Below are positions 35,530-62,955 of a stretch of DNA of 63,698 nt, piece after piece. This DNA is from a bacterium (GTDB taxonomy: Bacteria > Patescibacteriota > Minisyncoccia > JBBINA01). The DNA lies in contig JBBINA010000005.1 in assembly GCA_037444125.1 (NCBI GenBank), positions 1-63,698 of the forward strand. The letters run 5' to 3'. The translations under genes and the position numbers were made by a program. A model generated the notes under the pieces. It had not been told where the DNA came from. It was given only the letters and a program-made list of their open reading frames with translations, and did no database searches. Each line of letters begins with the position of its first letter. Within the stretch, counting starts at the first letter, position 1.

Positions 35530-37359
35530 ATGAAAAAAATATTGAAAATTATTTTAGTTGCCGTTTTAGTTTTAGGGATTTCGAGAATTTTAAAAGCCAG
35601 CACTATTTTTAATTTTGATATTGAACAAATATCAGAGTTTGAAAATAGAGATTTGGTTAATGAAATAAAAAATAATGTTAACAACTTTCAGATTTATCGA
35701 GATGACAGGTTAATTGTCAAACTAAAAAACGAACATAATTTTCGTACTTTATCACTTTCACAAGGCATAAAAGTTTCAGAGGCTATTAATTCCTTGAGGC
35801 AAAATCCGGAGATTGAGTATGTTGAGCCGGATTATTATGCTTATGCTCAGTTCATACCTAACGATCCATATTATAAATATCAGTGGAACTTTAATAATAA
35901 TGTTTATGGCGGAATAAATCTTGAGTCAGCTTGGGATTTGGCTCAGGGACAAAGCGTTGTTATCGCTGTAATTGACACGGGTGTAGCTTATGAAAATTAC
36001 AATAGTTTTCGGCAGGCTCCTGATTTGGTTAATACCCAATTTGTTGCCGGTTACGATTTTATTGAAAACGATTTTCATCCAAATGATGACAATGGCCATG
36101 GCACTCATGTCGTTGGAACTATTGCCCAGTCAACTAATAATAAACTTGGCGTAGCCGGAGTTGCTTATATGGCTAAAATAATGCCTATAAAAGCTTTAGA
36201 CAGAAAAGGTATTGGTTCTTATTCAGCCATTGCTAACGCCATACGTTATGCCGCTGATAATGGTGCACATATTATTAATTTGTCTTTAGGTGGACCAAGC
36301 CATTCGCAGGCATTATTGGATGCTGTCAGGTATGCTTATAGTAAAGGAGTATTTATAGTGGCAGCCGCAGGAAATGATGGCAAGGAAGTTATGTCATATC
36401 CTGCCGCTTATGATGAGTATGTAATGTCTGTTGGAGCAACCCGTTTTGACGAAAGACTTTCTTATTATTCAAATTACGGTTCATCTTTAGATATAGTTGC
36501 GCCGGGAGGCGATCTTAAGGTGGACCAAAATAATGATGGTTATGGCGACGGAATTTTACAGCAGACAATAGCGTCAAATAATCCCAGAAAATTTGGTTAT
36601 TATTTTTATCAGGGGACCTCAATGGCTACGCCGCATGTCGCTGGTGTGGCAGGGTTAATCAGGTCATTAGGGATTTCATCGCCTCAGCAAATTAGGGATA
36701 TTCTAATAGGTAAAGCTAAAGATTTGGGCGAGCCTGGGTTTGACAAATATTATGGTTATGGCAGATTAGACGCTGCTGCCAGTATAAATGAAGTTTTAAG
36801 ATTAGTTAATATAACTACGCAAAATTCTCAGCCGAATTTACAGCTTGAAACAACTAACCAAACGAATTTCTTAGATTCTAATACTTCCGAGAATAGTGGT
36901 AAAAATTTTATCTCAAAGATTTCAATTACTGACATATATGTGTCAAATTTTGATGCAGGCCGTCGCGTTCGAGTAGGTTTTCGGCTAGAAAATGGCAATA
37001 GAGAAGCTGTAACTTTATTAGCCAAGGGGCAGATTTTAGATGAGGATAATAACTTAGTTTCTTGGGGAAATTTTGAGGATATGACCTTAATAATTTCAGG
37101 TAATCGTTCAAAAATAGCATGGTTTGAGAGACTATTTATACCAGAAAATATTGATACGCGTAATTATATTCTTGAAATAATTTTAGTTGATGAATCAGGA
37201 AATAGTGTCAAAACCTCTAAAGATCTTGCTTATCAGGGGACTCGTTTCAAAATTAAAAATTTTATTTCTGATTCCATTTTGACAAAATTTAATAAGCAAG
37301 TAAAAAATATATTGACAAATTCTGAAAGTGTAATAGAATTACTAAACAAAAAAATTTGA
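35530..37359 (+). CDS. Secreted S8 (subtilisin-family) serine protease with prodomain and C-terminal Ig-like domain
   Basis: Signal peptide; catalytic triad motifs VIDTG, HGTHV and GTSMATPHVAG; oxyanion AAAGN. Confidence 0.95.
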   Translation: MKKILKIILVAVLVLGISRILKASTIFNFDIEQISEFENRDLVNEIKNNVNNFQIYRDDRLIVKLKNEHNFRTLSLSQGIKVSEAINSLRQNPEIEYVEPDYYAYAQFIPNDPYYKYQWNFNNNVYGGINLESAWDLAQGQSVVIAVIDTGVAYENYNSFRQAPDLVNTQFVAGYDFIENDFHPNDDNGHGTHVVGTIAQSTNNKLGVAGVAYMAKIMPIKALDRKGIGSYSAIANAIRYAADNGAHIINLSLGGPSHSQALLDAVRYAYSKGVFIVAAAGNDGKEVMSYPAAYDEYVMSVGATRFDERLSYYSNYGSSLDIVAPGGDLKVDQNNDGYGDGILQQTIASNNPRKFGYYFYQGTSMATPHVAGVAGLIRSLGISSPQQIRDILIGKAKDLGEPGFDKYYGYGRLDAAASINEVLRLVNITTQNSQPNLQLETTNQTNFLDSNTSENSGKNFISKISITDIYVSNFDAGRRVRVGFRLENGNREAVTLLAKGQILDEDNNLVSWGNFEDMTLIISGNRSKIAWFERLFIPENIDTRNYILEIILVDESGNSVKTSKDLAYQGTRFKIKNFISDSILTKFNKQVKNILTNSESVIELLNKKI

Positions 37360-37516: not shown

Positions 37517-37550
37517 AAACCTGCATTTTTTTAAAAAATGCAGGTTTTTA
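37517..37550 (+). terminator. Palindromic hairpin after the S8 gene
   Basis: AAACCTGCATTTTT...AAAAATGCAGGTTT followed by T residues. Confidence 0.6.
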
Positions 37551-37689: not shown

Positions 37690-38628
37690 ATGAAAAAATT
37701 AATAGCAGTATTCGTCGCAGTTGCCACTTTGGGTGTTTACGGCTTTGCCGCTGCTCACCCAGATGTGACTTTTGTGGTTTCCAACAGTAACAATGCTAAC
37801 GTTATAAATACTTTAGGATCTCTTTCTACTACTGGCAACAACTTAATTACCGCTGATCAAGATGTAGAGGATGGCGAAATTACTACTGGCAATGCCGAGA
37901 CTGAAGGCACAGTTTCAAATGATATTAACCAAAACTCGGCTGGCATGGACGTTTATGCTGGTTCCGATGTATCTGTAGCTATTAGCAATGAAAATAATGC
38001 CACTGTAAATAATACTGAACTATTGGCAGCTGAAACAGGTGAAAACGAAATTTCAGCTGACCAAGATGTTGGTAGTGGCAGAATCACTACAGGCAATGCC
38101 AAGGCTACAGGTAAAATTGGTAGCGTAAGTGGTATTAATCTTAATGTGGCGGAGTTGCAGATTGGTGATCCTGCTTCTTCTTGCGATGACTGCACTGGCG
38201 TTGATGATGTAAGTGTCTCAATTGAAAATAACAACGAAGCAAATTTAGAGAATATCGTTGTTCCTGTCGGTGATACAGGCGAAAACTTGATTACCGCTGA
38301 ACAAGATGTCGGTTCTTGCGATAGTTGTGGTTCAGGCGAAGCTACTATTGATACTGGCGATGCTGAAGCTAATGGTGAAATTGAGAATGATGTTAATCAA
38401 AATCAAGCTCAAGGTGGCATTTACGGCTCCAGTGATGTCATGGCCGTCGTAACTAACGGTAATGACGACCTTCAGTCGAATACCGTCACGCCAGTAGCTA
38501 ATTCCGGCACTAATGAAATTTCAGCTACACAGGATGTCTCTGGTTCAACCATTACGACTGGTTTAGCCAAAACCACATTGAAAATCATTAACCGCAAGAA
38601 TATCAGCATAACAGATTTCGACTTCTAA
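37690..38628 (+). CDS. Secreted four-repeat N/T/G/D-rich protein, paralog A1 (predicted beta-solenoid)
   Basis: Sec signal MKKLIAV...GFAAA; four ~65-80-aa repeats; CDDC and CDSC loops; RBS GAAAGGAGGTG. Confidence 0.85.
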   Translation: MKKLIAVFVAVATLGVYGFAAAHPDVTFVVSNSNNANVINTLGSLSTTGNNLITADQDVEDGEITTGNAETEGTVSNDINQNSAGMDVYAGSDVSVAISNENNATVNNTELLAAETGENEISADQDVGSGRITTGNAKATGKIGSVSGINLNVAELQIGDPASSCDDCTGVDDVSVSIENNNEANLENIVVPVGDTGENLITAEQDVGSCDSCGSGEATIDTGDAEANGEIENDVNQNQAQGGIYGSSDVMAVVTNGNDDLQSNTVTPVANSGTNEISATQDVSGSTITTGLAKTTLKIINRKNISITDFDF

Positions 38629-38649
38629 AAAGATTTGAAAGCTATTTCC

Positions 38650-38696
38650 CGGGATCCTGCACCTTCATTACAAATAAGAAGGTGCAGGGAATCCCG
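38650..38696 (+). promoter_or_regulatory. Intercistronic stem-loop between A1 and A2
   Basis: GGGAT-CCTGCACCTTC-(11 nt)-GAAGGTGCAGG-ga-ATCCC; no U-tract. Confidence 0.65.
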
Positions 38697-38751
38697 AAGG
38701 GACAAAATTCATAGGCATTAAAAATAATTTTTTCGAAAGGAGGTGAAAAAA

Positions 38752-39690
38752 ATGAAAAAATTAATAGCAGTATTCGTCGCAGTTGCCACTTTGGGTGTTT
38801 ACGGCTTTGCCGCTGCTCACCCAGATGTGACTTTTGTGGTTACAAACAATAACAACGCGCTGGTGACTAATTCGTTAACAAGCTTAGCAACTACTGGCGA
38901 CAACACTATTTCAGCTGATCAGGATGTGGAAGACGGCGAAATAAGCACTGGCAATGCCGAGACTGAAGGCACAGTTGAAAATGATATTAACCAAAACGCG
39001 GCTCAAATGGAGGTTAATGCCGGCTCAGATGTAACGGCATTGGTTAGCAACACAAATGACGCTTTAGTTACTAACGACGAAACTTTAGCGGCAGATTCAG
39101 GCGAAAATGAAATTACAGCCGAGCAGGATGTAGCCGGAGGTATCATAACTACAGGCAATGCCAAAGCTACAGGTAAAATTGGTAGTTTAACTGGCATAAA
39201 TATTAATGTAGCTAGTTTCATTATTGGTGATCCTACTTCTTCTTGCGATGACTGCACTGGCGTTGATGATGTAACTATAGAGGTTGATAATAGAAACGGC
39301 GCTTCTGTTGAAAATGGAATATTAAGCGATGCTGAAACAGGCGAGAACGAAATTGCGGCTGAGCAAGATGTTGATGGATGTAGTTCCTGCGGTGGCGGCG
39401 GCGCTTTGATTGATACGGGTGACGCCACAGCTGAAGGTGAAATAAAAAATGATGAAAATCAAAATGAAACTACGGGTAGTGTCTTTGCTTCAGGCGATGT
39501 AGATGTTGCGGTAGGTAATAATAATCTAGTTTTTGATTTTAATTCAGTTATTCCAGTAGCCGACACGGGTGCCAACGAAATCAGCGCCAGCGAAGATGTT
39601 AGTGATTCAACAATATCTACTGGTTTTGCAAAAACATTGCTTAAGGTGTTCAACCGCAAGAACATTAGCATAACTGAGTTTGAGTTTTAA
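38752..39690 (+). CDS. Secreted four-repeat protein, paralog A2
   Basis: Same signal peptide, repeat register and CxxC loops (CDDC, CSSC) as A1. The track start at 38743 lies inside the RBS, so ATG at 38752 is used. Confidence 0.85.
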   Translation: MKKLIAVFVAVATLGVYGFAAAHPDVTFVVTNNNNALVTNSLTSLATTGDNTISADQDVEDGEISTGNAETEGTVENDINQNAAQMEVNAGSDVTALVSNTNDALVTNDETLAADSGENEITAEQDVAGGIITTGNAKATGKIGSLTGININVASFIIGDPTSSCDDCTGVDDVTIEVDNRNGASVENGILSDAETGENEIAAEQDVDGCSSCGGGGALIDTGDATAEGEIKNDENQNETTGSVFASGDVDVAVGNNNLVFDFNSVIPVADTGANEISASEDVSDSTISTGFAKTLLKVFNRKNISITEFEF

Positions 39691-39706
39691 GCCAGATTAA
39701 TTTTTA

Positions 39707-39754
39707 TAGGAAGAGGTGCAAGCCTGAATTAAAAGGTTATGTTGCCTCTTCCTA
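39707..39754 (+). promoter_or_regulatory. Intercistronic stem-loop after A2
   Basis: TAGGAAGAGG(T)GCAA...TTGCCTCTTCCTA inverted repeat. Confidence 0.65.
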
Positions 39755-39821
39755 AAGGAGGGGAAAAAAATAAAAAAATATTTTAAAGGTATATTAAAGT
39801 ATAAACGTTAAAAATTATAAA

Positions 39822-40316
39822 ATGCGTTTGTCATCAAAAATTAGAAGGGTAAGTTTGTTTACGATGTTTTTTCTGTTCTTGAGTAGTATTGTCGCGGCAA
39901 AAAGCGTTGTTAATAATGATGTTTTTGTTTCTAGCAATAGTGGCGGCAATACTCTTAAAAACGGCAGAGTCATCGAAGGAAAAGAATTAAACAAAGTTGA
40001 GATTAATACGACTATAGACGGCAAAAAATTAGAGCCAATATCATTTACTCAAACGCAAGATAATAAAAAAATTATTGAAAAAAAGATTGATTATGTTTCG
40101 GAAGATGGTTCTGTTCAAGTGAAAAATTCTGTTAAAAGCGAAATTGGTCAAACAGAGTTTTTTCAGGGCAATAATTTTTTTGAGAGGAAAAACCTGCAAA
40201 TTACAGAAATTGAAGTTAAAAAGAGTCTTATAGAACAATTAAAAAATTCAGTTGCTAATTATTTCGGGTCAATAAGATTAGTTTTAAATGTTTTATTTAA
40301 TAATCTTGTTAGATAA
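39822..40316 (+). CDS. Secreted hypothetical protein
   Basis: Signal peptide ending IVAA; VFVSSNSGGN echoes the A/N-x-T/S-G-x-N repeat motif. Confidence 0.7.
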   Translation: MRLSSKIRRVSLFTMFFLFLSSIVAAKSVVNNDVFVSSNSGGNTLKNGRVIEGKELNKVEINTTIDGKKLEPISFTQTQDNKKIIEKKIDYVSEDGSVQVKNSVKSEIGQTEFFQGNNFFERKNLQITEIEVKKSLIEQLKNSVANYFGSIRLVLNVLFNNLVR

Positions 40317-43300
40317 GGTGAGAAAATTTGTTATTTTGTTTTATGCTTTATGGATAGCATTTAATCCGGTAGTTTTGGTTTTTGCTCAAACTGCTAGCAC
40401 TACTGACATCACCGCCCAGTTGCAACAACAAATTATTTCACAAGTTCAAACACAGACTGCTTCTTTGCCAACTTCAAATTCTATCGTTACTAATCAAAAA
40501 AGTTCAAATGTTAATAGTCAAATTAATAATCAGATAAGTGATGAGTTGGCTAAAATTGAACAAACTCAGCAAGAAGTTCCGATTGAAACTCAACAAAAAG
40601 TAGATGAAGCCTCAAAAGAGGCCGCTAGCAAATTAAACGATAAAAACGCCACAGGTAATAACACTAGCGATAATGAAGCGAATAATAATAACCAATTGCC
40701 GTCTTATGCCTATGATGGACCGATAAATCAAAGTTCAGAAAGTGCTAATTCCAATACCCAAGTTCAAAATTCCAATAATGAAAATGTTAGCACCGTACCT
40801 TCGCCAATGGATAGCGATAACGCTCAAATCTTAACTAACGCCAATATTGATCCAGTGCAGACTTCAGTTGGCGATGTACAGATTTCTGGATCAGTTCAAA
40901 CTGGCAATAATGATGGATCAGTTAAAGTTCAAACCGGTAATGTCAAGATTCAAGGCGAGGTCTTCAATCAAGCCAATACCAATACTGTCAGCGTAAACCA
41001 AACTCATCACAGCAATACTTTGGTAGAAAATAAAAACAAAAATCTTGTGGTTAATCTTTTTGATTATTTTGGCAGTTCAGGGCAAAACACAATTGAAAAA
41101 AATGACGGCCGAGCTGAAATTGATACCGGTAATGTTGATATTAGGCTTAATCTTTTGAATTTAACTAATACTAATATTACTAATTCAACCTGGGGTCAAT
41201 ATTTCTATAATTCCGAAGTTCCTTTAAATCAGGATATTAATATTGAAGAAGCTTGGCATAAAGCCGCGCATGATGATTGCAAATTTGGCGAGTGTGCCGG
41301 TGAATTCAAGGTGGTTAATATGAATGAGTCAACGGTGCAAAATAAGGTTAAGGTGCTGGGGATTTCAGGACAAAATAAAATTAAGGATGCTGACGGTGAT
41401 GGCATAATTAGAACAGGCGATGTCAGAGTGGCTACAAATTTAATTAACTTTTTGAATACTAATCTTACAGGTTCAGAGTGGGATTTAAGCGTTATTAATT
41501 TATTTGATGATTGGAAGGGGGATCTTATTTTGCCCGGCAAGCAAAAATACGATAGCAACAAAAAGAACTACAAGCTTTTCCCCAATACAGTTATTGATAA
41601 TAAAAACGATGTTTTGGTGTCTAATGAAATAGTTCTTGACGCTAATACCGGCAATAACCTAATTGATAATAATGACGGTGTTTCGAAAATAAAGACCGGC
41701 GATGCCCTGACTAAATCCAATATTCAAAATGTCATTAACGCTAATTTTCAAGGCGGAGATTGGTTTCTGGTGATTATTAATCGCTTTAATAACTGGGAAG
41801 GCAAAATTTTTAATAAGCCAACTGAAATTGGGGAACTAGTTCAAGACAAAAGTTTGATTTTTTCGTCATTTTTATCCGACGAAATGCTAAAAAATTTGTA
41901 TCATAATGACGATGAAGCTATTTTGTCAGTTACTAATAATAATCTCGGTGAACTTCGTAATGAAATTCTTATACAAGCTATGACAGGTGGCAATGAAATC
42001 CAGGGAAATGATGGGGATGCTGTTATAGAGACAGGCAAGGCGTTAATTCTGGCAAATGTTTTAAATATAGCTAATGTTTCAATTGCTGGCGGCGATTGGC
42101 ACTTGGCGGTTATTAATGTATTTGGCGATTGGCATGGTAATATTTTCTTTGGTAAACCCGACCTTAAAGTAACAGTTGAGAGTAATAAAACAGAGCTGTA
42201 TCAGCCCGGAGAAATGGTTGAATTAACAGCGATTTATTCCAACACCGGTTCAGCTGACGGCGATAACGCTAATCTCACTATGAGTTATGATTCTGATAAT
42301 TTAAAGCCGCTTTCTTCCACAGATTTAACTCAAAATAAAGGAAAAATCACTTGGGACCTAGGTAAGGTGCCTCAAGGAACAACTAAAAAAATAACTCAAC
42401 GCTTTGAGTATATTGGCAAAAATCCAACAGAAACAACAGCCGAAGTTAATGTGGCAATTGCAAGTCCGGTGCCTGATCTTAATATTGCAGATAATACAAA
42501 AAGCTTAGTTTTGGTTTATAAAAATAATAAGCCAGTTCAAAATCCAAAAGAAAATTCGAATAATAATGGGCAATCGACAAATAATGATAATAACTCAAGC
42601 CAAATGAGCAATAATTCAAGCAATAATCAGCAAAGCAATTTAAACAACAATAACCAGCCAAACTCATCAAATAGTTCGTCGGGTAGTAATAATGGCTCAG
42701 TGTCCGCCACTACTAGTAATTCAATATCCAACTCAAACGCTAATAACATCAGCGGTAGTTTTGGCGGTACCTCAAGTTCCGTTTTACAAGGACCAGTTGA
42801 AATTAGTAAATCCAACTCAACTAAAGGTTCAGTTAAACCAGGAGAGACGGTTAGTTATGTCATCAGAGTTAAAAACATTTCTGTAAGTAATATATATGGT
42901 TTAGTTATTACTGATACGATGAAAAATAGCGCTGGTACTATTATTACTTCTGACCGTTGGGAATTTGAAGAAGTAAAGTCAAACAAAGGTTTTGAAATTA
43001 AATACGATGTCACTATTTCTAATGAAACTCCTTCAGGCATATATACTAACTATGCCAAAATTGAAGGTTTTGATTCTCGTGGTGTAAAATTCACGGCTGC
43101 GGCCCAAAGCGTTATAACAGTGGCAAACGAAACATTATTAATGACTACTCTTCAAAACCAAAATCAAACAAATCTTCAACAAGCTATGATGACAACGCCA
43201 GTTATTAAATCAGATATTCCTGCGGAAAGTTTAATCATTAACAATCAAAAACCTTCAAAAATCCAATATCATCAAAACCTTGCCTATGAAAATACTAACC

Positions 43301-43620
43301 TTTTGCCTAGCAACATAAACAGCGTAGTTAGGAGGGTTAAAGAAACTCTTGGCAAGGTGGCTAATTTTGATTCTCCCAAACCGACGAAATTAGCGAATGG
43401 GACAAATGCTACTTTTACTCCACGGTTTATTAAGAAGGATAGTTTTTATGAAGAAAATGCAAGTGAAGGTATGTTGTTAGCTTCTGGTTTATTAGATAAA
43501 TTGACTAATAATTACCCAAAAATTTTAATCTTATTTGTCGTTATAGTTTATATATCAACATTCCTAAATTTTGGAGTAATATATGAAGGACGAGCTACCA
43601 AAAATCGAAAACGGAAATAA
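40288..43620 (+). CDS. Large membrane-anchored surface protein: Q/N-rich N-terminus, five A1-like repeats, two DUF11-like Ig domains, N/S-rich linker, C-terminal TM helix
   Basis: Repeats of the form G-x-N...I-x-TG[ND]...N-x-x-N-T-N; PDLKVT...PGEMVELTAIYSNTG and VEISKS...PGETVSYVIRVKN; hydrophobic ILILFVVIVYISTFL then RATKNRKRK. Alternative GTG start at 40318. Confidence 0.8.
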   Translation: MFYLIILLDKVRKFVILFYALWIAFNPVVLVFAQTASTTDITAQLQQQIISQVQTQTASLPTSNSIVTNQKSSNVNSQINNQISDELAKIEQTQQEVPIETQQKVDEASKEAASKLNDKNATGNNTSDNEANNNNQLPSYAYDGPINQSSESANSNTQVQNSNNENVSTVPSPMDSDNAQILTNANIDPVQTSVGDVQISGSVQTGNNDGSVKVQTGNVKIQGEVFNQANTNTVSVNQTHHSNTLVENKNKNLVVNLFDYFGSSGQNTIEKNDGRAEIDTGNVDIRLNLLNLTNTNITNSTWGQYFYNSEVPLNQDINIEEAWHKAAHDDCKFGECAGEFKVVNMNESTVQNKVKVLGISGQNKIKDADGDGIIRTGDVRVATNLINFLNTNLTGSEWDLSVINLFDDWKGDLILPGKQKYDSNKKNYKLFPNTVIDNKNDVLVSNEIVLDANTGNNLIDNNDGVSKIKTGDALTKSNIQNVINANFQGGDWFLVIINRFNNWEGKIFNKPTEIGELVQDKSLIFSSFLSDEMLKNLYHNDDEAILSVTNNNLGELRNEILIQAMTGGNEIQGNDGDAVIETGKALILANVLNIANVSIAGGDWHLAVINVFGDWHGNIFFGKPDLKVTVESNKTELYQPGEMVELTAIYSNTGSADGDNANLTMSYDSDNLKPLSSTDLTQNKGKITWDLGKVPQGTTKKITQRFEYIGKNPTETTAEVNVAIASPVPDLNIADNTKSLVLVYKNNKPVQNPKENSNNNGQSTNNDNNSSQMSNNSSNNQQSNLNNNNQPNSSNSSSGSNNGSVSATTSNSISNSNANNISGSFGGTSSSVLQGPVEISKSNSTKGSVKPGETVSYVIRVKNISVSNIYGLVITDTMKNSAGTIITSDRWEFEEVKSNKGFEIKYDVTISNETPSGIYTNYAKIEGFDSRGVKFTAAAQSVITVANETLLMTTLQNQNQTNLQQAMMTTPVIKSDIPAESLIINNQKPSKIQYHQNLAYENTNLLPSNINSVVRRVKETLGKVANFDSPKPTKLANGTNATFTPRFIKKDSFYEENASEGMLLASGLLDKLTNNYPKILILFVVIVYISTFLNFGVIYEGRATKNRKRK

Positions 43621-44470
43621 ATTAACAGTTTTATTTAACAGGCTTACATCTTTTGCTATTATTGTTTTAGTTTTTTTTATAATTGGCGGGTCAATTTTGG
43701 CTATATCTAATAGTCGAGATTTAAAAATAAAAGCTAATATAAATCCAGCTATACAAGTTTCGTCCGGAGAAATTAATTTTAATGACTTAACTTCGGGTCA
43801 AACCAGCACTCAGGAAATTGAGATTAAATTAAGCGACATTTTTAATGAAACCCAGCCGGTAAAATCAGTACATTATGTTATTCATAAATTTAACCAACCC
43901 AAAAATTCGCAAGACCTTACTTATTGCCAGAAAACGACTAATTTTCCTGATATTAGAAATTGGAGCAATTATTCAGCTGAAGATTGGCAGGATTTTATTG
44001 ATTCAGCCTATTTTGAAAAATGCAACTTATCGCTTTGCCCCTTTATTTCTATTAAAAAGTCAACTAATGAGATGTCAGAAAACGGAGCTTTATTTGCGGC
44101 TCGTCCTCAGGTAGTCCAAAATGATTCTGGTTTTTTAGATGTTTTTGTTGAAAACAATGTTCAGAATAGAGACCCCAGTTCTATATTGACAGATACTAGA
44201 AAAAGTGATAAATTTGACTATGGAGTTGATGCCTTTAATTATCCAAAAATAATAGATAATACTTTTGAGTTTACAAAAGCCAAAGGATATTTGGAGAAAA
44301 ATACGGATTCTAGCGATAAATGGCTTGTAACTTTAGAAGCGCCCTGTTTTAAAAATGACTCAAACTGCAATGCAAGGTACAAGGAACTTTTTGACAAGAT
44401 ACCCAACGAACTGGCTAATCAGAATTGGGGTTGCTCGATTTGGTACGAAATAATCAATATTGAAAGATAA
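43583..44470 (+). CDS. Exported Cys-containing protein, TasA-like/Ig-like subunit candidate
   Basis: N-terminal hydrophobic helix; KIKANI strand, EINFNDLTSG, LCPF, DKWLVTLEAPC and WGCSIWYEI. Confidence 0.65.
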   Translation: MKDELPKIENGNKLTVLFNRLTSFAIIVLVFFIIGGSILAISNSRDLKIKANINPAIQVSSGEINFNDLTSGQTSTQEIEIKLSDIFNETQPVKSVHYVIHKFNQPKNSQDLTYCQKTTNFPDIRNWSNYSAEDWQDFIDSAYFEKCNLSLCPFISIKKSTNEMSENGALFAARPQVVQNDSGFLDVFVENNVQNRDPSSILTDTRKSDKFDYGVDAFNYPKIIDNTFEFTKAKGYLEKNTDSSDKWLVTLEAPCFKNDSNCNARYKELFDKIPNELANQNWGCSIWYEIINIER

Positions 44471-44895
44471 TGAATTTTTTTAAAGGCAAAACAGAAAAGA
44501 AACTGTTTTGGACAGGAATTATTGTTTTTATAATTGTTTTTATTGTTATTGTCATTTCAAGACAAGTGAGTTTTGATATTTATGTAACAGTAATACCCTC
44601 AAAAAATGTTTTAGAAGTTAATTTTGATTCTCATCACATTAATTTCGGAGTTGTTAGCCCTGGATTTGTTGCGCATAAATATATTGATCTTAAGAACGAT
44701 TCTAAATTGACTAATGTTTTTTACATAAAAATTAAAGGCGAGATTGCCAGTTGGCTAAAAACTGATAATAGTCTTTTTGCCGTGAAACCTGAATCATCAA
44801 GACAAATACAACTTACCTTATCAGTTCCTAAAATAGTAAAATTTGGGACTTATAAAGGCGTGATAAGGCTTTATAATTTTTATACTATTTTTTAA
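44470..44895 (+). CDS. Small exported Ig-like protein
   Basis: TM/signal segment, then HINFGVVSPG...IDLKN...VKPESSRQIQLTLSVP...GTYKGVIRL; TAATG coupling on both sides. Confidence 0.7.
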   Translation: MNFFKGKTEKKLFWTGIIVFIIVFIVIVISRQVSFDIYVTVIPSKNVLEVNFDSHHINFGVVSPGFVAHKYIDLKNDSKLTNVFYIKIKGEIASWLKTDNSLFAVKPESSRQIQLTLSVPKIVKFGTYKGVIRLYNFYTIF

Positions 44896-46154
44896 TGCGC
44901 GGTTTTTTTACACGCAAAATAAGCTTATGTTTAGTTATGGCAGTAATAGCTGTTTTGATATGGCCTAGTAAAATTTTGGGTTTTGAAGCTTATCAGGTTA
45001 GAATAAACGCGGTACTTCGGCCTCAAGACCAGATATCTCCTCCGCCCCAACAGCAATGCGAAACAGTTGTTTTAGAAGGCAATATGAATATTGCTAGTAT
45101 GACTTTTAGAAATAAAAGTGTTATTTTAAAAACTGGCAGCGTTTTAGTTCCTAAGCTGTCAAATATTAATCTTTATGTGGGATGCGATTTTATAATTGAA
45201 AGAGGCGCTTCAATTGATGTCAACAATGCCCAAGATGGTTTTATCCGTTTGATAATAGGACAGAATTTAATTTTAAATGGTAAAATTTTAGCTAAATCCA
45301 ACGGTACACCTTCGTCTGTTCGAATTTCAACTGGAGCAGACGCTCTTATTAACGGCGAAATTGATAGCTCAGGTTCTGCTTCTGCCGGTATGATAAGAAT
45401 TGATAGCAACAGAAAACTTGTAATAAATTCTCAAAGCATTAGAGCTAATTCATTAGACGGCACAGCCGGAGAAATTAGACTTAATGTACTTGATGATTTA
45501 GAAATTAATGGGAAATTGGAAGCTAAAGGTATTAATATTAATGCTTCAGGTGGTTCTATAAGAGCTGTTGTTGAGGGCAAAGTAGCTATTGCTGGCGTTA
45601 TAGATGTATCAGGCAATCAAAAAGGCGGCAGTATTAGAATTTCTGCTGAAAAAAACATTAATTTAGAAAACAGTGGTCAAATTAATTTTTCTTCTCAAAA
45701 TGGTAATGGCGGTATAGTTATAATCAATACGGGTAAAGATTTAGAAATTAAAGGTTCTTTGATTGGCGATGGTTTAAGGTCTGGAGGGTCGTTTATAGCT
45801 ACAATTGATAAAGACTCTTTAATCACGGGTATTATAACGGCAAACGCTTTTGATCCTAGTTCAGGAGAAGGCGGTGTTATTGGTTTAAATGCTAGTAATG
45901 GAAATCTAATAATTTCAGGCAAGCTTGAGGCTAAAGGCAAAACAAAAAACGGATCAATTAATTTAACTTACTGTTCTAAAAATTTTTCGGGCGCTCAATT
46001 TAATCCTTTACCCTCAGAAGTTGATAATTGTCCTAATATTCAAAGTTTAACAACTGAAAATTCGCTTTATACTCCAATTCAAACTAATACATTTTTTATG
46101 AGCCAAATTGACAGCCCTTTGCTGAATTATTTTAATATTTTTATAAAAAAATAA
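44895..46154 (+). CDS. Secreted Gly-rich beta-helix (adhesin-like) protein
   Basis: Signal peptide, then FEAYQVRINAV, then about 8 repeats of the form GG-x-I-x-I-x-A-x-x-D/N-L-x-I-x-G-x-I-x-A. Confidence 0.7.
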   Translation: MRGFFTRKISLCLVMAVIAVLIWPSKILGFEAYQVRINAVLRPQDQISPPPQQQCETVVLEGNMNIASMTFRNKSVILKTGSVLVPKLSNINLYVGCDFIIERGASIDVNNAQDGFIRLIIGQNLILNGKILAKSNGTPSSVRISTGADALINGEIDSSGSASAGMIRIDSNRKLVINSQSIRANSLDGTAGEIRLNVLDDLEINGKLEAKGININASGGSIRAVVEGKVAIAGVIDVSGNQKGGSIRISAEKNINLENSGQINFSSQNGNGGIVIINTGKDLEIKGSLIGDGLRSGGSFIATIDKDSLITGIITANAFDPSSGEGGVIGLNASNGNLIISGKLEAKGKTKNGSINLTYCSKNFSGAQFNPLPSEVDNCPNIQSLTTENSLYTPIQTNTFFMSQIDSPLLNYFNIFIKK

Positions 46155-46156
46155 TT

Positions 46157-47470
46157 ATGCCAAAATTTGCTATGGTAATAAAATTAATCTTGTTTTTTAT
46201 GCTTATTTCGGTAAGCAGAATTTTTGCTCAAGATATTTCAATTTTTACGATTTCCACAGACCTTATTGATTTGAGCAATATTTTTGCTGGAGAAAAATTT
46301 ACAAGGACTTTTAGGGTTAGTCTTGACCCTGCAGTTACAAATAAAATTCTAAATTATAAAATAATCCGTCCAACAAATAGCCCCTTCTGCAATAGCATTT
46401 TATTTAAACCGGAAGAGCAAAATGATGCCATTAATTCCAGTTTTTTAAGTGCGTCTAGCGACAGAGAAGATATTTGGGAATTAGTTATAGAAGTTCCGGA
46501 ACTTGAAAATAGTACTTTGGCCAGTAATAAGACAATGATTTCTGCCGGTAATTATGAGTGTAATATTCAGGTTGAAGCAATTTCAGTGCAAGATGAGACT
46601 AGCCAACCATCGCCGCCAAGTAATGGTAGTGGAGGTGGTAGTGCGCCAGGCAATGATGTTAACGTTCCCTCGCAGCCACAAGGTCAAAGCGGTTCTGGAG
46701 GAGGCGGTTTCTTAATAGTTTCTCAACAAACGCAACAAAAAGGCGAAGACTTTCAAACTAATGCGTTTGGTCTAGTCGTAGATAATGTTCCTCCTAAAAT
46801 CACACCCCCAACTGAAGATTTATTTCTTATTAATGAATCTTTTAAGATTAAAGAGATTGGCAGCGATTATATCATTATTATGTTTAACACATCGCTGCCT
46901 TTGTATGTAAAGGTTGTTTATGATGTGAAAAGCCATGACCCAATTGAATCCGATAAAAAAAATTATGGTTATGCCTCCTCGACGGAAGAAACAACTAGCA
47001 GTGGTTCATTTTTTGAAATAAAGTTAGTTGGTTTAAATCCCGACACTGCTTATTATTTTAGAATTGTGATGAGAAATCTTAACTTGATAAAGCCAAGCAA
47101 AGAGTTTTATGTGAAGACTTTAACCGCGAGAAAGACTCCCGAAGTAGCTAAACAAACGGTTACCGCAACAACGACGCAGCCAAGAGGTGATAAAGAAGAA
47201 GGACAAGAGCAAGAAGCTAACGGGCTAACACCAAAATTTTTCAGCTTAGCCAATCTGAAAAGTTTTTTAAGCAACTTGCCAGTGGAAATGTGGTTAATAA
47301 TAATTTTGGCTTTAATTTTGATAATAGATTATATAAGACGAAAAGTTATCCAACGGATTAAAAAATTGAAAAAGCATTCACTATTTACAAGATTAAAAAA
47401 ATACTTTATAGTGTTAATATTTCTGTTGTTAGGTAAAAAAAAGAAAAAGGGTAACAGATTTAATTCTTAA
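46157..47470 (+). CDS. Surface protein: TasA-like N-domain, G/S/P linker, Fn3-like domain, C-terminal TM anchor
   Basis: IDLSNIFAGEKFTRTFRVSL...DIWELVIEVP...YECNIQVE resembles the 43583 protein; GLNPDTAYYFRIV (Fn3); WLIIILALILIIDY then a basic tail. Confidence 0.7.
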   Translation: MPKFAMVIKLILFFMLISVSRIFAQDISIFTISTDLIDLSNIFAGEKFTRTFRVSLDPAVTNKILNYKIIRPTNSPFCNSILFKPEEQNDAINSSFLSASSDREDIWELVIEVPELENSTLASNKTMISAGNYECNIQVEAISVQDETSQPSPPSNGSGGGSAPGNDVNVPSQPQGQSGSGGGGFLIVSQQTQQKGEDFQTNAFGLVVDNVPPKITPPTEDLFLINESFKIKEIGSDYIIIMFNTSLPLYVKVVYDVKSHDPIESDKKNYGYASSTEETTSSGSFFEIKLVGLNPDTAYYFRIVMRNLNLIKPSKEFYVKTLTARKTPEVAKQTVTATTTQPRGDKEEGQEQEANGLTPKFFSLANLKSFLSNLPVEMWLIIILALILIIDYIRRKVIQRIKKLKKHSLFTRLKKYFIVLIFLLLGKKKKKGNRFNS

Positions 47471-47478
47471 AAATTATT

Positions 47479-48525
47479 ATGTTAAATAAAGCCAAAAAAC
47501 TTTCTATTTTATTAAGTTTTTTAGCTATTTCTGTTGGGATAGGGTTATCTTTTAAAAGTTTAGTCGGGGCGCAAGATAAGCTAACTATCGAGCAATTTCT
47601 TGTGCGCGAAACTGAAGCAGGTGCTTTGAGTGGGATTTCTCTTGAATTTATTGTTAAAGCTTGCGATAAACGCGATTCTTCGATTGCAGCAACATTAAAT
47701 TATGGCGATGGCTCAATCGATACATTTAGTATTCGTTGTGGTGAAAGTATATCTAAAATTCATACCTATAACTCTAGCGGTCGTAATATTATTACTCTTA
47801 AGGTTAAGAATGCCTTTGGAGAGGAGTTGAGGCGACAACTTGAGGTTGATGTTAGAAACTTTCCGCCGGTTATTCGCGAATTTGGATTAAATCCATTGAG
47901 CAATTTGGCGGCTAATCAAATGGTGTTGTTTGATATTTCTGTTTGCGATTCGGCTAAAGACGTTATAAAAGCGCGGTTGTTGCCGGGTGACGGTCGGGAA
48001 ATAGTTATTGATCCTAGCTGTGGTTTAAGCACTTACTCGGTTATTTATACTGCCAATGGCACTTATACAGCTAAAATTATAGCTGAAGACTCTAATAACC
48101 AAAGAAGCGAAAAATCGTTGAATGTGACTATTGGCGGAGTGGCTACAACCATTCCTATTATTCCGCCAGCGCCATCTGATTTAAGGAGAAAATTAGTGCG
48201 CACCAATGAAAATGGCCCAATTTATTATATAACTGAAATATTAAGAAAAAGAAAAATACCTAATATGGATGTTTTTCATTCTTATGGTAATAAACTTTCT
48301 GATGTTATCTTAATTTCGGAGTCAACTTTGCAATTATTTCCTGATGTTAAATTAATTCATTTAGATAATGAAATGCCTTTTCGCGTTTTTTTGTTAGAAA
48401 ACAATGTTAAACGGTGGATTACCACTTTTGAAGCCTTAAAGCGTTTAGGTATGGAAAATGAACCAGTAGCGCCGGTAAACTTAACTGAGTTTATTACCTA
48501 TCCAACCGGACAACCTATTTTTTGA
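47479..48525 (+). CDS. Secreted protein with two PKD-like domains and a C-terminal surface repeat domain
   Basis: LNYGDGS...HTYNSSG and LLPGDGR...YTANGTYTA (PKD); IYYIT...KRKIPNMDVFHSYG and VFLLENNVKRWITT..YPTG repeats. Confidence 0.75.
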   Translation: MLNKAKKLSILLSFLAISVGIGLSFKSLVGAQDKLTIEQFLVRETEAGALSGISLEFIVKACDKRDSSIAATLNYGDGSIDTFSIRCGESISKIHTYNSSGRNIITLKVKNAFGEELRRQLEVDVRNFPPVIREFGLNPLSNLAANQMVLFDISVCDSAKDVIKARLLPGDGREIVIDPSCGLSTYSVIYTANGTYTAKIIAEDSNNQRSEKSLNVTIGGVATTIPIIPPAPSDLRRKLVRTNENGPIYYITEILRKRKIPNMDVFHSYGNKLSDVILISESTLQLFPDVKLIHLDNEMPFRVFLLENNVKRWITTFEALKRLGMENEPVAPVNLTEFITYPTGQPIF

Positions 48526-56421: not shown

Positions 56422-56862
56422 TTATCGTACATAACCATAAATCATCGCTACAATTAAAACCGCGGCGATACTAAGAATTAACACTATTTGAACTGAAGGA
56501 TCGATTTTGGAAAAATCAATTGTATGAACGACTACTGTTGACGGCACCATAATCCATCTTTCAACGATTAGATATTCAATACCTGAATATGTAACCGCCT
56601 TTACCATCACATAATATTGACCAGGCGCGGGATAAACATGCGGTAAGCGAAGTTCGCGAGTTCTTTTAATAGTTCCATCTCCAAAATGCCATATGTATTC
56701 TTTGACTTCATAAAAAACTTGGGTTTGTCGAATTTCAAACCAAATTGTATTTGAACCTGATGCGTGCCAAAACAAACTAGTTTGTGTTTGCGAAAAGCCT
56801 TCTTTGTTGGGTGTAATAAGTATACTCGCTACAGCTATGACTAGCCATAACAAATTTTTCAT
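56422..56862 (-). CDS. Single-PKD-domain surface protein with a C-terminal TM helix
   Basis: YIWHFGDG...HVYPAPGQYYV; signal peptide; C-terminal hydrophobic helix; AAGGAG RBS. Confidence 0.85.
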   Translation of the reverse strand: MKNLLWLVIAVASILITPNKEGFSQTQTSLFWHASGSNTIWFEIRQTQVFYEVKEYIWHFGDGTIKRTRELRLPHVYPAPGQYYVMVKAVTYSGIEYLIVERWIMVPSTVVVHTIDFSKIDPSVQIVLILSIAAVLIVAMIYGYVR

Positions 56863-56876
56863 CTGAAATCATCTCC

Positions 56877-57623
56877 TTAAAAACATAAAGGTCCATATGG
56901 CGCGATATTACAGCTAAACGCTACCATAAATTTTATGATAGCAATTATTAGAACTATTCCAGAATGTTGCTCAATTTGCCACTTTACATTAATAACTTTT
57001 GCTGTTTCGTGACAGCGGTTATCTATTGTGCAAGAGCGTAAAAAAACTCGATAAATTCCGCTTTCTTTATAGCGATGATTTACTTGTTCGCCCGCACGTA
57101 TGTAAGATTGAATGCCGTCACCAAAATCCCAAATATAATAGGCTGGTTGCGATGCGATAATTTGGGGTTTAAAAATAATATTGTAACTCCTTGATTCTTG
57201 CTGGGCTGAAAAATTTACCAATGGACCTGGTCTTTGCGTTTCGTCATAAACCATTAAAGCATAAATTGCTTCAGCTGTTCGATTTTCTTTATCAACAACA
57301 CGTAGTCTTACTTTAACAAGTCCTATCGATTTAAAAACCCATGTGCCAAATGGAAAATCTGTTATTTGGTCGGTGCTGCCGTTATTGTCGTAATCCCAGT
57401 AATAATATCGTATTTCTCCCTTTGAACTGCGGGCGTCAAAAACAATCTGTTCGCCTTTTATAATTTTGAAAGGACTATGAGTAAAATAAGCGATAGGAGC
57501 TTTTGTAGGTCGGCTTCTTTGCGTTTGGGCAAAAATTATCGTACTATTGTCAATTAACAAAATCGTTAAGACAAATAGAAAAAGCGAAACCCATATCTTC
57601 CCAAATTGGTTTTTTTTTAACAT
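56877..57623 (-). CDS. Two-PKD-domain surface protein
   Basis: FDARSSKG..YYWDYDNNG and YIWDFGDG...HRYKESGIYRV. Confidence 0.85.
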   Translation of the reverse strand: MLKKNQFGKIWVSLFLFVLTILLIDNSTIIFAQTQRSRPTKAPIAYFTHSPFKIIKGEQIVFDARSSKGEIRYYYWDYDNNGSTDQITDFPFGTWVFKSIGLVKVRLRVVDKENRTAEAIYALMVYDETQRPGPLVNFSAQQESRSYNIIFKPQIIASQPAYYIWDFGDGIQSYIRAGEQVNHRYKESGIYRVFLRSCTIDNRCHETAKVINVKWQIEQHSGIVLIIAIIKFMVAFSCNIAPYGPLCF

Positions 57624-57691
57624 CGTGTATCCCCCCTTGGATACAAAGGTTCATTTATATCTTAACACACTAAAGTTATAAAGTCAAATTT

Positions 57692-59023
57692 TTATTGGGC
57701 CTGAGTGGTTGTGTTCGTGATGTTTGAGTTTTCTAATGTTGGTTGTGAAGTAGTTGGGGCTTTAAGGGTTTCATTAACGATCGCTTCATTAAGGGTTTCC
57801 GTTGATGTTGCTTGTTCCGGCATTGATTCTTCAGGAGAGCTGGTGATATTATTTAATTCGGTTTCTGATTTATTTGGTTCAATATAGCGGGTAGGCAGAT
57901 TATGATTAATAATCCAGTAATCAAAATTAAGCACCTTAACGCCATCATGGCTAAAACTGATTTCAAAGCCTTCTCCTTCTACTCTTTTTGATATCCACCA
58001 ATTTGACATTGGGTCATTTAAAAAAGTAATAAAAATAATTGAATTTTCCTTTACAAAGGGTTCGCGTATAAATAGAGCGTTTGAGTCAAGTAATGTTTCT
58101 ATGTGTCCTGTTATTTGATTTTTTAATTGCGTATTGGAAGTTTCAATAGAATTGGTTGCTGTGCTAACGGCCTCATTATTAAAAAAAGTTGAAGTTGCAA
58201 GTTGGTTTTCAACAAGTTTCTCATTTAACTTATCAATTTTTTCATTAAGTTTAATAAGTTCAGCTAGGATAGTTTTAATTTCGGTAAAAATGGCACTTAT
58301 TTTGTTTATTAAATAAACAAATAAGTTTTTTATACTTGACCAAAAACCTTCATTTTGCTCTGGGGTGCTGGTGGCTTGGAGGCTTGAGTTTAATAAATTC
58401 ATTTTCATTTCCTCGGCCGCAGCTTTTAAAGAGTCATTTTGTAAAGGTTCGGTTTTTAATTCTTGGAGCACTTTTTTTAAATCATCAGTATCAAAAACGA
58501 GAATAGCATTAGTGGCATTACTTAAAAAATTATGCTTGAGAAGTTCGGTAATTAAATTATCTTCTTCTTTAATTTTTTGCTCCTGCATAAATTTTTCCAA
58601 AGTAATAATCCTACGGCGAGGAATCATTTCTTGGTCCCAGTTTAGTTCATCAGTCAAACCGCCTACTGAAAGTGTGAGATAATAGTCTTTTGCATTAAAA
58701 TCAAAGTTTATTTTATTGTATCGTCCCAAAATAACTTGAAAATAGCCATCGGTTCCAACTTTGACTTTATGGAGGCCAACAAACATCTCTTGCCAAACCA
58801 AATTGCCGCCAAGTTCTTCATCATATATGAGAAATTTAAAATTATATTTTCCGGCTGGCAGTAAATTTCCCTTGTTATCAGTCAAAGTTCCTTTAAATAA
58901 AATTCTTAAAGACTGGCTTTCTTTTTTAAAATCAACTTGCGCCTTGGTTATAGATATTGTCAAAAATAATAAAAATAAGAATAAGAAAACAAAGACTATT
59001 AACTTTTTATTTAATTTCGCCAT
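57692..59023 (-). CDS. Secreted protein with the terminal domains typical of CPR giant surface proteins but no large passenger region
   Basis: FKGTLTDNKG...YNFKFLIYD...GG..VWQE...GYFQVILG at the N-terminus; coiled coil; IFITF...WWISKR...FEISF...FDYWII near the C-terminus. Confidence 0.6.
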   Translation of the reverse strand: MAKLNKKLIVFVFLFLFLLFLTISITKAQVDFKKESQSLRILFKGTLTDNKGNLLPAGKYNFKFLIYDEELGGNLVWQEMFVGLHKVKVGTDGYFQVILGRYNKINFDFNAKDYYLTLSVGGLTDELNWDQEMIPRRRIITLEKFMQEQKIKEEDNLITELLKHNFLSNATNAILVFDTDDLKKVLQELKTEPLQNDSLKAAAEEMKMNLLNSSLQATSTPEQNEGFWSSIKNLFVYLINKISAIFTEIKTILAELIKLNEKIDKLNEKLVENQLATSTFFNNEAVSTATNSIETSNTQLKNQITGHIETLLDSNALFIREPFVKENSIIFITFLNDPMSNWWISKRVEGEGFEISFSHDGVKVLNFDYWIINHNLPTRYIEPNKSETELNNITSSPEESMPEQATSTETLNEAIVNETLKAPTTSQPTLENSNITNTTTQAQ

Positions 59024-60719: not shown

Positions 60720-61723
60720 TGCACATTATTTATTTTATTTAAGTGCCGATTTATTATCCATTGATTGTATCGCTTGATGCCAATAAATCCTAATATAATC
60801 AGCAAAATAATTATTATTGCGCTTGTTAGTAAAAGCTCCCAGGGTAATACCCAAAATGTTAGCATATCGTTAGCCTGTTTGCCGTTTGAGCCGTATTCAA
60901 GGGTTAAGTAAGCTGAATATCTACCTAAAGCAAAATTGTGTCTTTCATATTCAAGCCATTCAAAAAAGTTTTTTGGTTGTTGATTTTGAATTTTTGAATT
61001 TTGATTTGCCTGCCAAGCGACATTATATTTTCTAATTGAACCTCGTAAAATATTACCTTTAAGGGGATTAGCTTGAAATAATATAGTTGTCCGTCCAAGT
61101 AAGTTTTTTATTTCAATACTTCCTTGAGGTTTTAAATGAACATTACCAGAATTTTCAAACCTCCAGTAAAAATTAATAGGTCGCGCTTTATATAATTTTT
61201 TATTCTGAAACAAACCAAATTCAAGAAGCCTACCCTCTTCTTTTATATCGCCAGCAACTTTTATTAAAACTAGTGCGCCAATTTTGCCGCTAATAGAAAC
61301 ACCGCTTCCGCCAACATCACTTGGTGGTTGTGTGCCTAAAAATATGCCGCCGTAATGTCCTCCGGCTGAAGCAGTTTCAGGAATTTTTATTTCAATGGGT
61401 ATTTCTTTGCGTTCGCCCGGTTGAAACTCAATTGGTTGATTATTTAAAATAAACCATGAAGCCATTTCGCCTTCTTCAGTTGTCTCATAAAAAAAAGGTT
61501 CGCCTCGCTCTTCTTCTTTAGCCTTAAAATTCATTGTTGATAAATAATAAGAGCCAAGTGAACTTGATTCATTAAAAACTTTGAGCGTGATTATTAATTT
61601 ATCGCCGGGATTGCCTTGAAGTTCAAAAACAGGCGGTGAAATAGTAAGAGCATAACTTCTAAGAGGCAGCGTAAAAATAAATAAAAGTGCCCAGAATGCA
61701 AATTTTCTAAACATAACAATCAA
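60716..61723 (-). CDS. DUF916/DUF3324-like (WxL-interacting, CscA-like) membrane-anchored protein
   Basis: ISPPVFEL...PG...VFN, PETASAGGHYGGI, FENSGNVHLKPQGSIEIKN and GRYSAYLTLEYG; C-terminal TM helix. Confidence 0.75.
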   Translation of the reverse strand: MIVMFRKFAFWALLFIFTLPLRSYALTISPPVFELQGNPGDKLIITLKVFNESSSLGSYYLSTMNFKAKEEERGEPFFYETTEEGEMASWFILNNQPIEFQPGERKEIPIEIKIPETASAGGHYGGIFLGTQPPSDVGGSGVSISGKIGALVLIKVAGDIKEEGRLLEFGLFQNKKLYKARPINFYWRFENSGNVHLKPQGSIEIKNLLGRTTILFQANPLKGNILRGSIRKYNVAWQANQNSKIQNQQPKNFFEWLEYERHNFALGRYSAYLTLEYGSNGKQANDMLTFWVLPWELLLTSAIIIILLIILGFIGIKRYNQWIINRHLNKINNVQ

Positions 61724-61777
61724 GTTTTTAAATATTCAAAAATTCAAATTAGTTTTTCGCTATTGCTATTACTTTTA

Positions 61778-62815: not shown

Positions 62816-62955
62816 ATTTATTTTTTAATATTTAATAATTAATTTATATTTTATATTATATCGAAATATTTTATTTTAAAATTTTACTTATCTATAATAA
62901 AATTGCAATATAATAAATTGTGGATAACTTTTAGAGGCCGCACCTGCAAAAAATT

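Follow-up and report, generated by a model that had tools for sequence, protein, structure and literature searches.

Do the four tightly packed genes at positions 43583 to 47470 of contig JBBINA010000005.1, a 63,698-nucleotide stretch of DNA from a member of the Patescibacteria (this whole stretch is called the window below), encode a surface fibre whose subunits are joined through an N-terminal strand, and which protein would then take which place in it? Patescibacteria (the Candidate Phyla Radiation, or CPR) are thought to live attached to host cells by means that are largely unknown, and to our knowledge this attachment has so far been linked only to type IV pili and, very recently, to Pam pili. 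An earlier note on the window had proposed that the proteins named here by their start positions, 43583 and 44470, form the shaft of such a fibre, with 44895 as its tip and 46157 as its membrane base. Judged from their sequences and from those of their relatives, the four genes are a divergent, lineage-specific derivative, without a peptidase gene, of a conserved gene cassette that we call the FEAH cassette after the first residues of the strand tag carried by its products, and this cassette may build a fibre of the proposed kind.

A protein family with a nearly invariant N-terminal tag

An exhaustive profile search, seeded with 43583 and its two orthologues, returned 73 relatives, each matching in an N-terminal and a C-terminal stretch that flank a variable middle, and a second search with a trimmed alignment brought the family to at least 547 protein clusters. 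All organism labels seen in the family are those of Patescibacteria (Parcubacteria, Giovannonibacteria, Sungbacteria, Minisyncoccia) or of an unclassified bacterium, and all but a few clusters are unnamed or annotated as hypothetical. The consensus order is a signal peptide, the segment A|FEAHVINVTAxIENALxV..xIxFGTVFPQE, a Cys-rich variable insert, and DxWxIDLxVPCFxGxCAQD...FGCDLWxEVTGIS, with the core domain following the pattern IxFGxVFPxE … YxI … LCPYLSK … DxWxIDLxVPCF … FGCDLWxEV. Among 171 cluster representatives, 13 of the 16 positions of the tag FEAHVINVTAxIENAL are 91-100% conserved and the residue before it is always Ala, while the family domain outside the 16-mer is ~25% identical. 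The residue at position -3 of tagged proteins is non-canonical (F or M), whereas untagged cores have AxA. Many members carry C-terminal extensions, which in Pfam and NCBIfam correspond to VWA, SpaA-like, LTD, MopE-repeat, LamG and beta-helix domains, and also to RTX, DUF11 and SdrC-like domains.

The core domain had no Pfam, NCBIfam or PDB match, lenient thresholds included, when 74 relatives were searched and PDB profile searches were made, and nothing relevant on the tag motif, or on SipW in CPR, was found in the literature. A profile search of genome contigs with the 43583 family gave no match, and neither did a metagenome contig scan with a four-sequence subset of the divergent 43583 subfamily. 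The family is apparently undescribed, in the literature and in family databases, and widespread in Patescibacteria.

The canonical cassette links the tag to a signal peptidase

Neighbourhoods of six family members were inspected on long contigs from different samples, and all six showed one gene order: two or three genes for proteins with both strand and core (strand+core; the first often with a VWA domain), a gene for a 141-174-aa protein with an N-terminal transmembrane (TM) segment and an immunoglobulin (Ig)-like domain, a gene for a 137-187-aa signal peptidase, and a gene for a larger protein. The two or three strand+core proteins of a cassette are small and without any adhesin domain. The peptidase scores 84-90 bits with TIGR02228, the NCBIfam model for archaeal-type signal peptidase I (cut-off 51.85), matches the SipW model as well, with E values of 1e-11 to 1e-13, and retains the SGSMxP, HR and GDAN boxes.

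A metagenome scan seeded with the small Ig protein then gave 80 loci, all open reading frames (ORFs) of which were classed by hidden Markov models (HMMs) built here; proteins with the FEAH tag on a non-core domain were called strand-only, and those with a core but no tag core-only. In 66 of the 67 loci with enough sequence, the small Ig gene is followed directly by the peptidase gene, and the single miss is due to a parsing artefact. Upstream, 51 of 53 loci have one or more core genes; after the peptidase, 41 of 52 have a strand-only gene. Nearly all of the core genes that lie upstream of the peptidase carry FEAH (81/84), in contrast to one of the 12 downstream of it; the other 11 have AxA cleavage sites, and their mature N-terminus begins at the second strand. 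Canonical strand-only proteins consist of a long N-region, a TM segment, the FEAH tag and a non-core domain, and the family HMM covers only positions ~3-40 of them.

Two further elements recur in these loci. Small GIY-YIG or 23S_rRNA_IVP/bAvd-type genes often stand between the structural genes, as in loci L087 (7517-7777), L089 (11301-11561), L093 (9170-9535) and L094 (10294-10662), a placement that hints at mobile or diversity-generating elements acting on surface proteins. A helical module, TRTQGFWxTHT...ALDxAR..LLxQL..AKLNC, which gave no match in NCBIfam, follows the core in core-only proteins and FEAH in strand-only ones, and also forms the C-terminus of other neighbours (core-only genes of L107, L133 and L164; L087 11696-12670; L089 15664-16863, 8769-9722 and 17474-20146).

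The four window genes are colinear with the cassette

To place the window genes, we used HMMs built solely from canonical metagenome relatives and ran them against the 269 window ORFs. The three best ORFs for the family HMM were 43583 (E 5e-34), 44470 (E 0.0027) and 46157 (E 0.23). Pairwise BLASTP gave E values of 0.003 for 43583 against 46157 and 0.14 for 43583 against 44470. A naive position-specific scoring matrix (PSSM) of the FEAH tag returned negative scores throughout the window ORFs and no significant rank for the window sites, because the tag is too invariant for such a matrix to score diverged copies. Searches of Pfam, NCBIfam and PDB sequences with the four window proteins found nothing above threshold. 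The order in the window is core (43583), small Ig (44470), strand-only (44895) and core-only (46157), all on the + strand, which is colinear with the canonical cassette minus its peptidase. The peptides quoted in the earlier note were all found where it had placed them.

The core subunit, 43583 (43583..44470, 295 aa), has a hydrophobic signal or anchor segment at aa 21-44, a strand at aa 45-60, and a Cys-rich, beta-rich core with a lineage-specific insert holding six Cys. The canonical-only HMM match covers both halves of the core domain. The canonical FEAH tag is absent; in its place stands S|RDLKIKANINPAIQVS (nt 43715-43762), a degenerate strand that keeps only the I/V-x-A-x-I-x-x-A-[IL]-x-V pattern. 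The peptide DLKIKANINP occupies aa 46-55 and EINFNDLTSG aa 63-72. The protein has two orthologues, at 71% and 65% identity, in which the strand region is invariant, and its nearest relatives, P0007-P0009, share the degeneration of the tag, forming a divergent branch in which FEAH was lost and the alternating strand was kept.

The second protein, 44470 (44470..44895, 141 aa), is a single-domain Ig-like protein with an N-terminal TM tether, in which FDIYVTVIP lies at aa 35-43 and HINFGVVSPG at aa 56-65. Against an HMM of six canonical small Ig proteins it scores E 6e-17, and phmmer comparisons give E 1e-8 to 3e-13. In canonical cassettes its homologues are the immediate upstream neighbours of the SipW-type peptidase, and this relative position is kept across the 80 loci. 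These results speak against the earlier assignment of 44470 as a shaft pilin and identify it instead as a conserved small TM-tethered Ig accessory protein; alignment of the 44470 family with the core family by hhalign was weak (probability 7-40%), and we do not claim a core fold in it. From sequence, it may act as an anchor, a chaperone or a peptidase helper. Faint matches were also noted, to domains of the PapD-like clan (ASH, Cep192_D4; sub-threshold) in 44470 itself and to choice-of-anchor-D and the WxLIP peptidoglycan-binding domain (WxLIP_PGBD) in its homologues.

The third protein, 44895 (44895..46154, 419 aa), holds the slot of the strand-only genes in canonical cassettes. It consists of a signal peptide, the tag, a Pro/Gln linker and a beta-helix-like domain with ~25-residue periodicity, without a core domain. 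Its strand, G|FEAYQVRINAVL (aa 30-41, nt 44982-45017), starts precisely where the signal peptide ends and is kept in both orthologues; the quoted peptide FEAYQVRINAV (aa 30-40) follows right after the hydrophobic signal segment. The strand agrees with the consensus FEAH[VI][IV]NVTAxI at F, E, A, the aromatic position, V/I, I/V, A and L. The family HMM matches positions 3-39 only, at E 1.1-7.3, so the strand-only assignment is made at the level of the motif. The strand that had been read in this protein is thus present, and the beta-helix that had been placed behind it is indicated only by the 25-residue periodicity and a sub-threshold DUF7305 match. In the more distant locus L095, the gene downstream of the core likewise encodes a signal peptide, a strand, a Pro-rich linker and a domain.

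The fourth protein, 46157 (46157..47470, 437 aa), is core-only. A signal peptide with an IFA|QD site precedes a core at aa 25-146 (nt 46229-46594) that lacks the FEAH strand, and linkers, an Fn3-like region (aa ~222-322), a C-terminal TM segment and a basic tail follow. The peptide IDLSNIFAG lies at aa 37-45, with DIWELVIEVPEL...C further on. The protein matches the core-only HMM at E 4e-5, and in hhalign its N-domain aligns with the core-only alignment over 135 columns, from the cleavage site through the final strand (probability 93%, E 3e-7), and with the whole family at 89.5%. The proposed TM anchor is a clear hydrophobic segment (aa ~378-393, nt 47288-47335), whereas the proposed Fn3 domain gave sub-threshold matches only (Pfam E 4e-4; PDB DCC Fn3 E 0.006). 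An isolated strand-like segment, GGGGFL[IA]VSQQxQQKG (aa 181-196, nt 46697-46744), is invariant in all three orthologues between poorly conserved Gly/Ser/Pro-rich linkers; by analogy with Pam pilins, it could serve as an internal strand for complementation or donation.

The peptidase is missing from the window

With an HMM of the six cassette peptidases, a SipW-type peptidase was detected neither in the window nor in the orthologous loci L001, L002, L004 and L005 (best E 0.58), which bears out the earlier statement that the window has none. Because 43583 has lost FEAH and has a possible cleavage site, SNS|RD, and because the peptidase is missing, the comparison suggests that processing of 43583 switched to the general signal peptidase, as has been proposed for archaeal bundling pili (PMC9245690). 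Signal peptides in the window would presumably be removed by that enzyme or by one encoded elsewhere. An S8 subtilase with a fervidolysin-like prodomain is encoded just upstream of the operon described below (35530-37359), as it is in the orthologous loci L004 and L005, and it might conceivably process the operon proteins in place of a SipW-type peptidase.

Proposed strand complementation and alternative explanations

A linear polymer held together by strand complementation needs repeat units that both donate and accept a strand, one donor-only end and one acceptor-only end. The strand+core, strand-only and core-only classes are those that such a polymer needs, and this, together with the peptidase link, is why we favour strand complementation. 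In the canonical form, the dedicated SipW/archaeal-type peptidase would probably cleave and expose the FEAH strand, the free N-terminal strand of one subunit would fill a groove in the core of the next, and a linear fibre would result with a strand-only protein at one end and a core-only protein at the other. In the window, 43583 is a candidate polymerising (shaft) unit and would be the repeating subunit, 44895, with its strand and beta-helix, is a candidate distal (tip/cap) subunit and could serve as cap or adhesin, and 46157, with its core, Fn3-like region and C-terminal TM segment, is a candidate membrane-anchored base that would act as acceptor; 44470 would be a membrane-tethered Ig accessory, as anchor or chaperone. 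The orientation follows from the C-terminal TM segment on the acceptor-only 46157, which would put this protein at the cell-proximal end and the beta-helix protein at the distal end. The proposed arrangement of shaft, tip and base is therefore retained in outline for 43583, 44895 and 46157, through the modularity, the peptidase link in relatives and the TM segment of 46157, and given up for 44470 as part of the shaft. The genes are observed to belong to the family and to be colinear with the cassette, the peptidase link is seen in relatives, and strand and core come as separate modules; from these observations we infer cleavage, insertion, polymerisation and subunit order, and we regard it as an evenly balanced question whether the cassette builds a TasA/Tafi-like surface fibre by intermolecular strand complementation.

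Several results weigh against this interpretation. The absence of the peptidase and the loss of FEAH in the core gene leave processing in the window uncertain, and 43583 and 44470 could retain their long hydrophobic segments as anchors instead of having them cleaved off. A C-terminal TM segment is lacking in canonical core-only proteins, so that a role as base may be specific to the lineage of the window. AlphaFold2 monomer models from three-sequence alignments had predicted local distance difference test (pLDDT) values of 36.5 for 43583 and 44.5 for 46157, at which the fold is unreadable. A profile comparison with TasA and CalY, as the earlier note had proposed, detected no sequence homology, nor was any detected with archaeal bundling pilins (ABP): TasA/CalY PF12389 (Peptidase_M73), TasA, CalY and AbpA were matched neither by the four proteins (E up to 1), nor by 74 relatives, nor by 26 relatives searched at E up to 10, and PDB profile searches were empty. 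No sequence homology to Tafi or Pam proteins was detectable either. Finally, a tag that is near-identical in all paralogues also fits a peptidase or sorting signal, rather than a code of ordered donor strands.

The last of these points leads to the most serious alternative, which we consider possible and yet clearly less probable: the FEAH 16-mer would be the recognition element of the dedicated peptidase or an envelope attachment tag, the proteins would be displayed singly as adhesins, forming at most 1:1 complexes of strand-only and core-only proteins, and the window would hold four separate surface proteins. A tag far more conserved than the domains it precedes, and shared almost unchanged among paralogues, is what enzyme-recognised sorting signals look like, the F/M residue at -3 as opposed to AxA in untagged cores suggests two peptidase specificities, and the C-terminal domains of the family (VWA, LTD, SpaA, RTX, DUF11, SdrC-like) are typical adhesin modules. 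However, a pure cleavage signal would have no need to persist in the mature protein in the form of an amphipathic strand of 16 residues, a sorting signal fails to explain why there is a class of cores, at a fixed position, that lacks exactly this strand, and the two or three small strand+core proteins of each cassette, having no adhesin domain, resemble structural repeat units.

It is improbable that the locus encodes a divergent CPR pilus of the Pam type, with 43583 as a Pam-like pilin undergoing chaperone-assisted donor-strand exchange, and with 44470 and 46157 as PapD-like chaperones anchored in the membrane or as a terminator resembling PamR. The organism is CPR-like, 46157 combines Ig and Fn3 features with a C-terminal TM segment as described for PamR, PamC or PamD, and the faint PapD-like matches of 44470, like a partial match of the neighbouring protein 47479 to PamR, the RbmA-like terminator of Pam pili, point the same way. 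Against this, the nine operon proteins match no NCBIfam Pam model except for that partial PamR match, at 15.8 bits (E 0.005) against a cut-off of 300 bits and probably reflecting generic Ig/Fn3 similarity, and none of the 74 family members matches a Pam model. Pam pilins are two-domain proteins whose donor strand is an internal linker, whereas the conserved strand here is N-terminal, and 44470 is a single-domain protein with an N-terminal TM segment. We rejected the Pam-type pilus since no Pam model was matched above its cut-off and two-domain pilins or chaperones were not found. Barely credible is the view that the similarities are no more than what secreted Ig-like proteins share in general and that the four genes are neighbours without a functional relation, for although the marginal BLASTP values and the null result of the naive PSSM would fit it, independent HMMs single out exactly these neighbours in a gene order identical in two orthologous loci and colinear with 80 canonical cassettes, and HMM matches and colinearity together exclude chance resemblance.

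Returning to strand complementation, we hold a broader proposal slightly less firmly than the fibre itself, just short of an even chance: that Patescibacteria own a widespread, apparently undescribed fibre system, which would join type IV pili and Pam pili as a third type, and in which a SipW-type peptidase exposes the FEAH strand, which polymerises Cys-rich cores and plugs in interchangeable adhesin modules, the window holding a derivative without the peptidase and with a membrane-anchored acceptor. If this is true, a third and very common cassette, with a simple logic of strand tag and acceptor core and with swappable adhesin domains (VWA, LTD, RTX, beta-helix), would be added to the means of attachment, and it would supply a model, open to direct test, of how CPR contact their hosts and diversify their adhesins.

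The surrounding operon

The earlier note had treated the four genes as one coupled set. Coupling was upheld by ATGA overlaps at the starts of 44470 and 44895, by a gap of 2 nt before 46157 and by a gap of 8 nt before 47479, but the unit is larger than four genes, since the start of 43583 also overlaps, by 38 nt, the end of an ORF for an 1110-aa protein that is a conserved partner. This surface protein (40288..43620, + strand) has TGxNxI..DGxAxIxTGxA..N..N repeats, Ig-like (MG2/CLIPPER-type) domains and a C-terminal TM segment. Its gene sits upstream of the core gene in both orthologous loci, and in the distant relative L095 a gene for a protein of ~1100 aa lies directly upstream (E 5.5e-183), although the core gene of that locus is only 36% identical. 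Farther upstream (37690..40316, + strand) are genes for two paralogous repeat proteins (312 and 315 aa) and a 164-aa protein carrying repeats of the same type, whose synteny is kept in L004 and L005 and which probably form the start of the operon. The last gene of the run, 47479 (47479..48525, + strand), which is kept in the orthologous loci, encodes a 348-aa secreted protein with two PKD domains (PKD_4 E 1e-8) and a conserved C-terminal domain. The sole strong terminator-like hairpin, with a 14-bp stem, is at 37517-37547, between the S8 subtilase gene and the first repeat-protein gene, and because of this and the tight gene packing the operon likely spans ~37690-48525.

Word-indexed homology searches found only two orthologues per protein, at 57-71% identity, and on the orthologue contigs the gene order is identical: S8 protease, repeat protein, a protein of ~174 aa, one of ~1100 aa, the 295-aa and 141-aa proteins, a beta-helix protein of ~430 aa, a protein of ~420-430 aa, a PKD protein of ~350 aa, and ClpB. 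The window, with a G+C content of ~33%, was found in a single subsurface metagenome DNA run, and no RNA data were found.

The four consecutive genes at 37690-43620 (312, 315, 164 and 1110 aa) have in common the repeat TGxNxI..(D/N)GxAxIxTGxA..N..N; a motif akin to it ends the strand-only protein of L087, and the N-terminus of the window repeat proteins, GFAAAHPDVTFVVSN, bears a vague likeness to the FEAH tag. A second cluster of surface-protein genes lies at 56422-63528 on the - strand. It encodes two small PKD-like proteins with a C-terminal TM segment, a 443-aa coiled-coil-like protein, a 570-aa Fn3 protein with a TM segment, 345-aa and 190-aa Ser/Thr-rich beta proteins, and a 335-aa DUF916/WxLIP_PGBD-like protein with a C-terminal TM segment, the second-best window match of the small-Ig HMM (E 0.008). 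The cluster looks like a WxL/Csc-type or other fibre locus.

Comparison with known fibre systems

Two familiar kinds of pilus were considered and set aside. No LPxTG-like motif was found in 43583, 44470, 44895 or 46157, and a sortase-assembled pilus was rejected. Chaperone-usher pili (Fim/Pap) resemble the proposed fibre in combining an N-terminal donor strand with an incomplete Ig acceptor, and in having one terminal subunit without a donor strand. They differ in that the envelope here is monoderm-like and the FEAH donor strands are near-identical rather than specific to each subunit, and this reading was rejected with no usher or two-domain chaperone among the annotated genes.

Pam pili, described in Candidatus Mycosynbacter amalyticus, are CPR filaments of Ig-like subunits that exchange strands without an outer-membrane usher and depend on membrane-anchored accessory proteins (Troman et al. 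2026, bioRxiv 10.64898/2026.03.03.709456). The proposed fibre would share with them its place on the CPR surface, strand exchange without an usher and membrane-anchored accessory proteins. In contrast, the strand donated by Pam subunits is an internal linker, these subunits depend on two-domain PapD-like chaperones that carry a C-terminal TM segment, and no SipW-type peptidase has been described for Pam.

Closer parallels are provided by loci with a SipW/TafD-type peptidase, which form fibres in the case of TasA (PMC9674648, PMC9245690) and Tafi (PMC11821415, PMC12337348); BsaA is likewise a SipW-linked fibre system (PMC11580942). Strand donation between subunits has been proposed for TasA, archaeal bundling pili and Tafi (PMC9674648, PMC9245690, PMC11821415). 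For Tafi of haloarchaea, the predicted parts are a TafC tip, a TafE adapter, the major subunit TafA, a TafF anchor with a C-terminal TM segment, and the TafD peptidase (PMC11821415, PMC12337348). The likeness to the window is one of architecture only, with a strand-donating tip bearing an adhesin domain (44895), repeating Ig-like subunits and a base protein with a C-terminal TM segment (46157), to which the canonical FEAH cassettes, but not the window, add a dedicated signal peptidase in the locus. Tafi differs in using Tat signals and in having an archaeal rather than a bacterial (CPR) host; the N-termini of the window proteins contain no twin-arginine motif, and the operon proteins matched no Taf model. 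Two relatives did match the TafC model NF052521, but these matches probably do not fall on the core, because they coincide with two Laminin_G_3 matches among the relatives, and TafC has a laminin G-like domain.

The TasA/TapA/SipW biofilm-fibre system of Bacillus subtilis shares with the canonical FEAH relatives a neighbouring SipW/archaeal-type signal peptidase I and an accessory protein in the operon. TasA and the FEAH proteins are alike in being secreted, in being rich in beta structure and in the conservation of the N-terminal segment that directly follows the cleavage site, and for both it is proposed that subunits assemble by donating an N-terminal strand, with neither an ATPase nor an usher. 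Unlike TasA, the FEAH cassette has explicit strand-only and core-only classes, its tag and Cys-rich core are unrelated to TasA in sequence, and the window copy lacks the peptidase and has an acceptor anchored by a TM segment. If the proposed mechanism is true, SipW-coupled strand-complementation fibres such as TasA, Tafi and archaeal bundling pili would extend to a sequence-unrelated protein family, and the variant in the window would be a natural experiment on the need for a dedicated peptidase.

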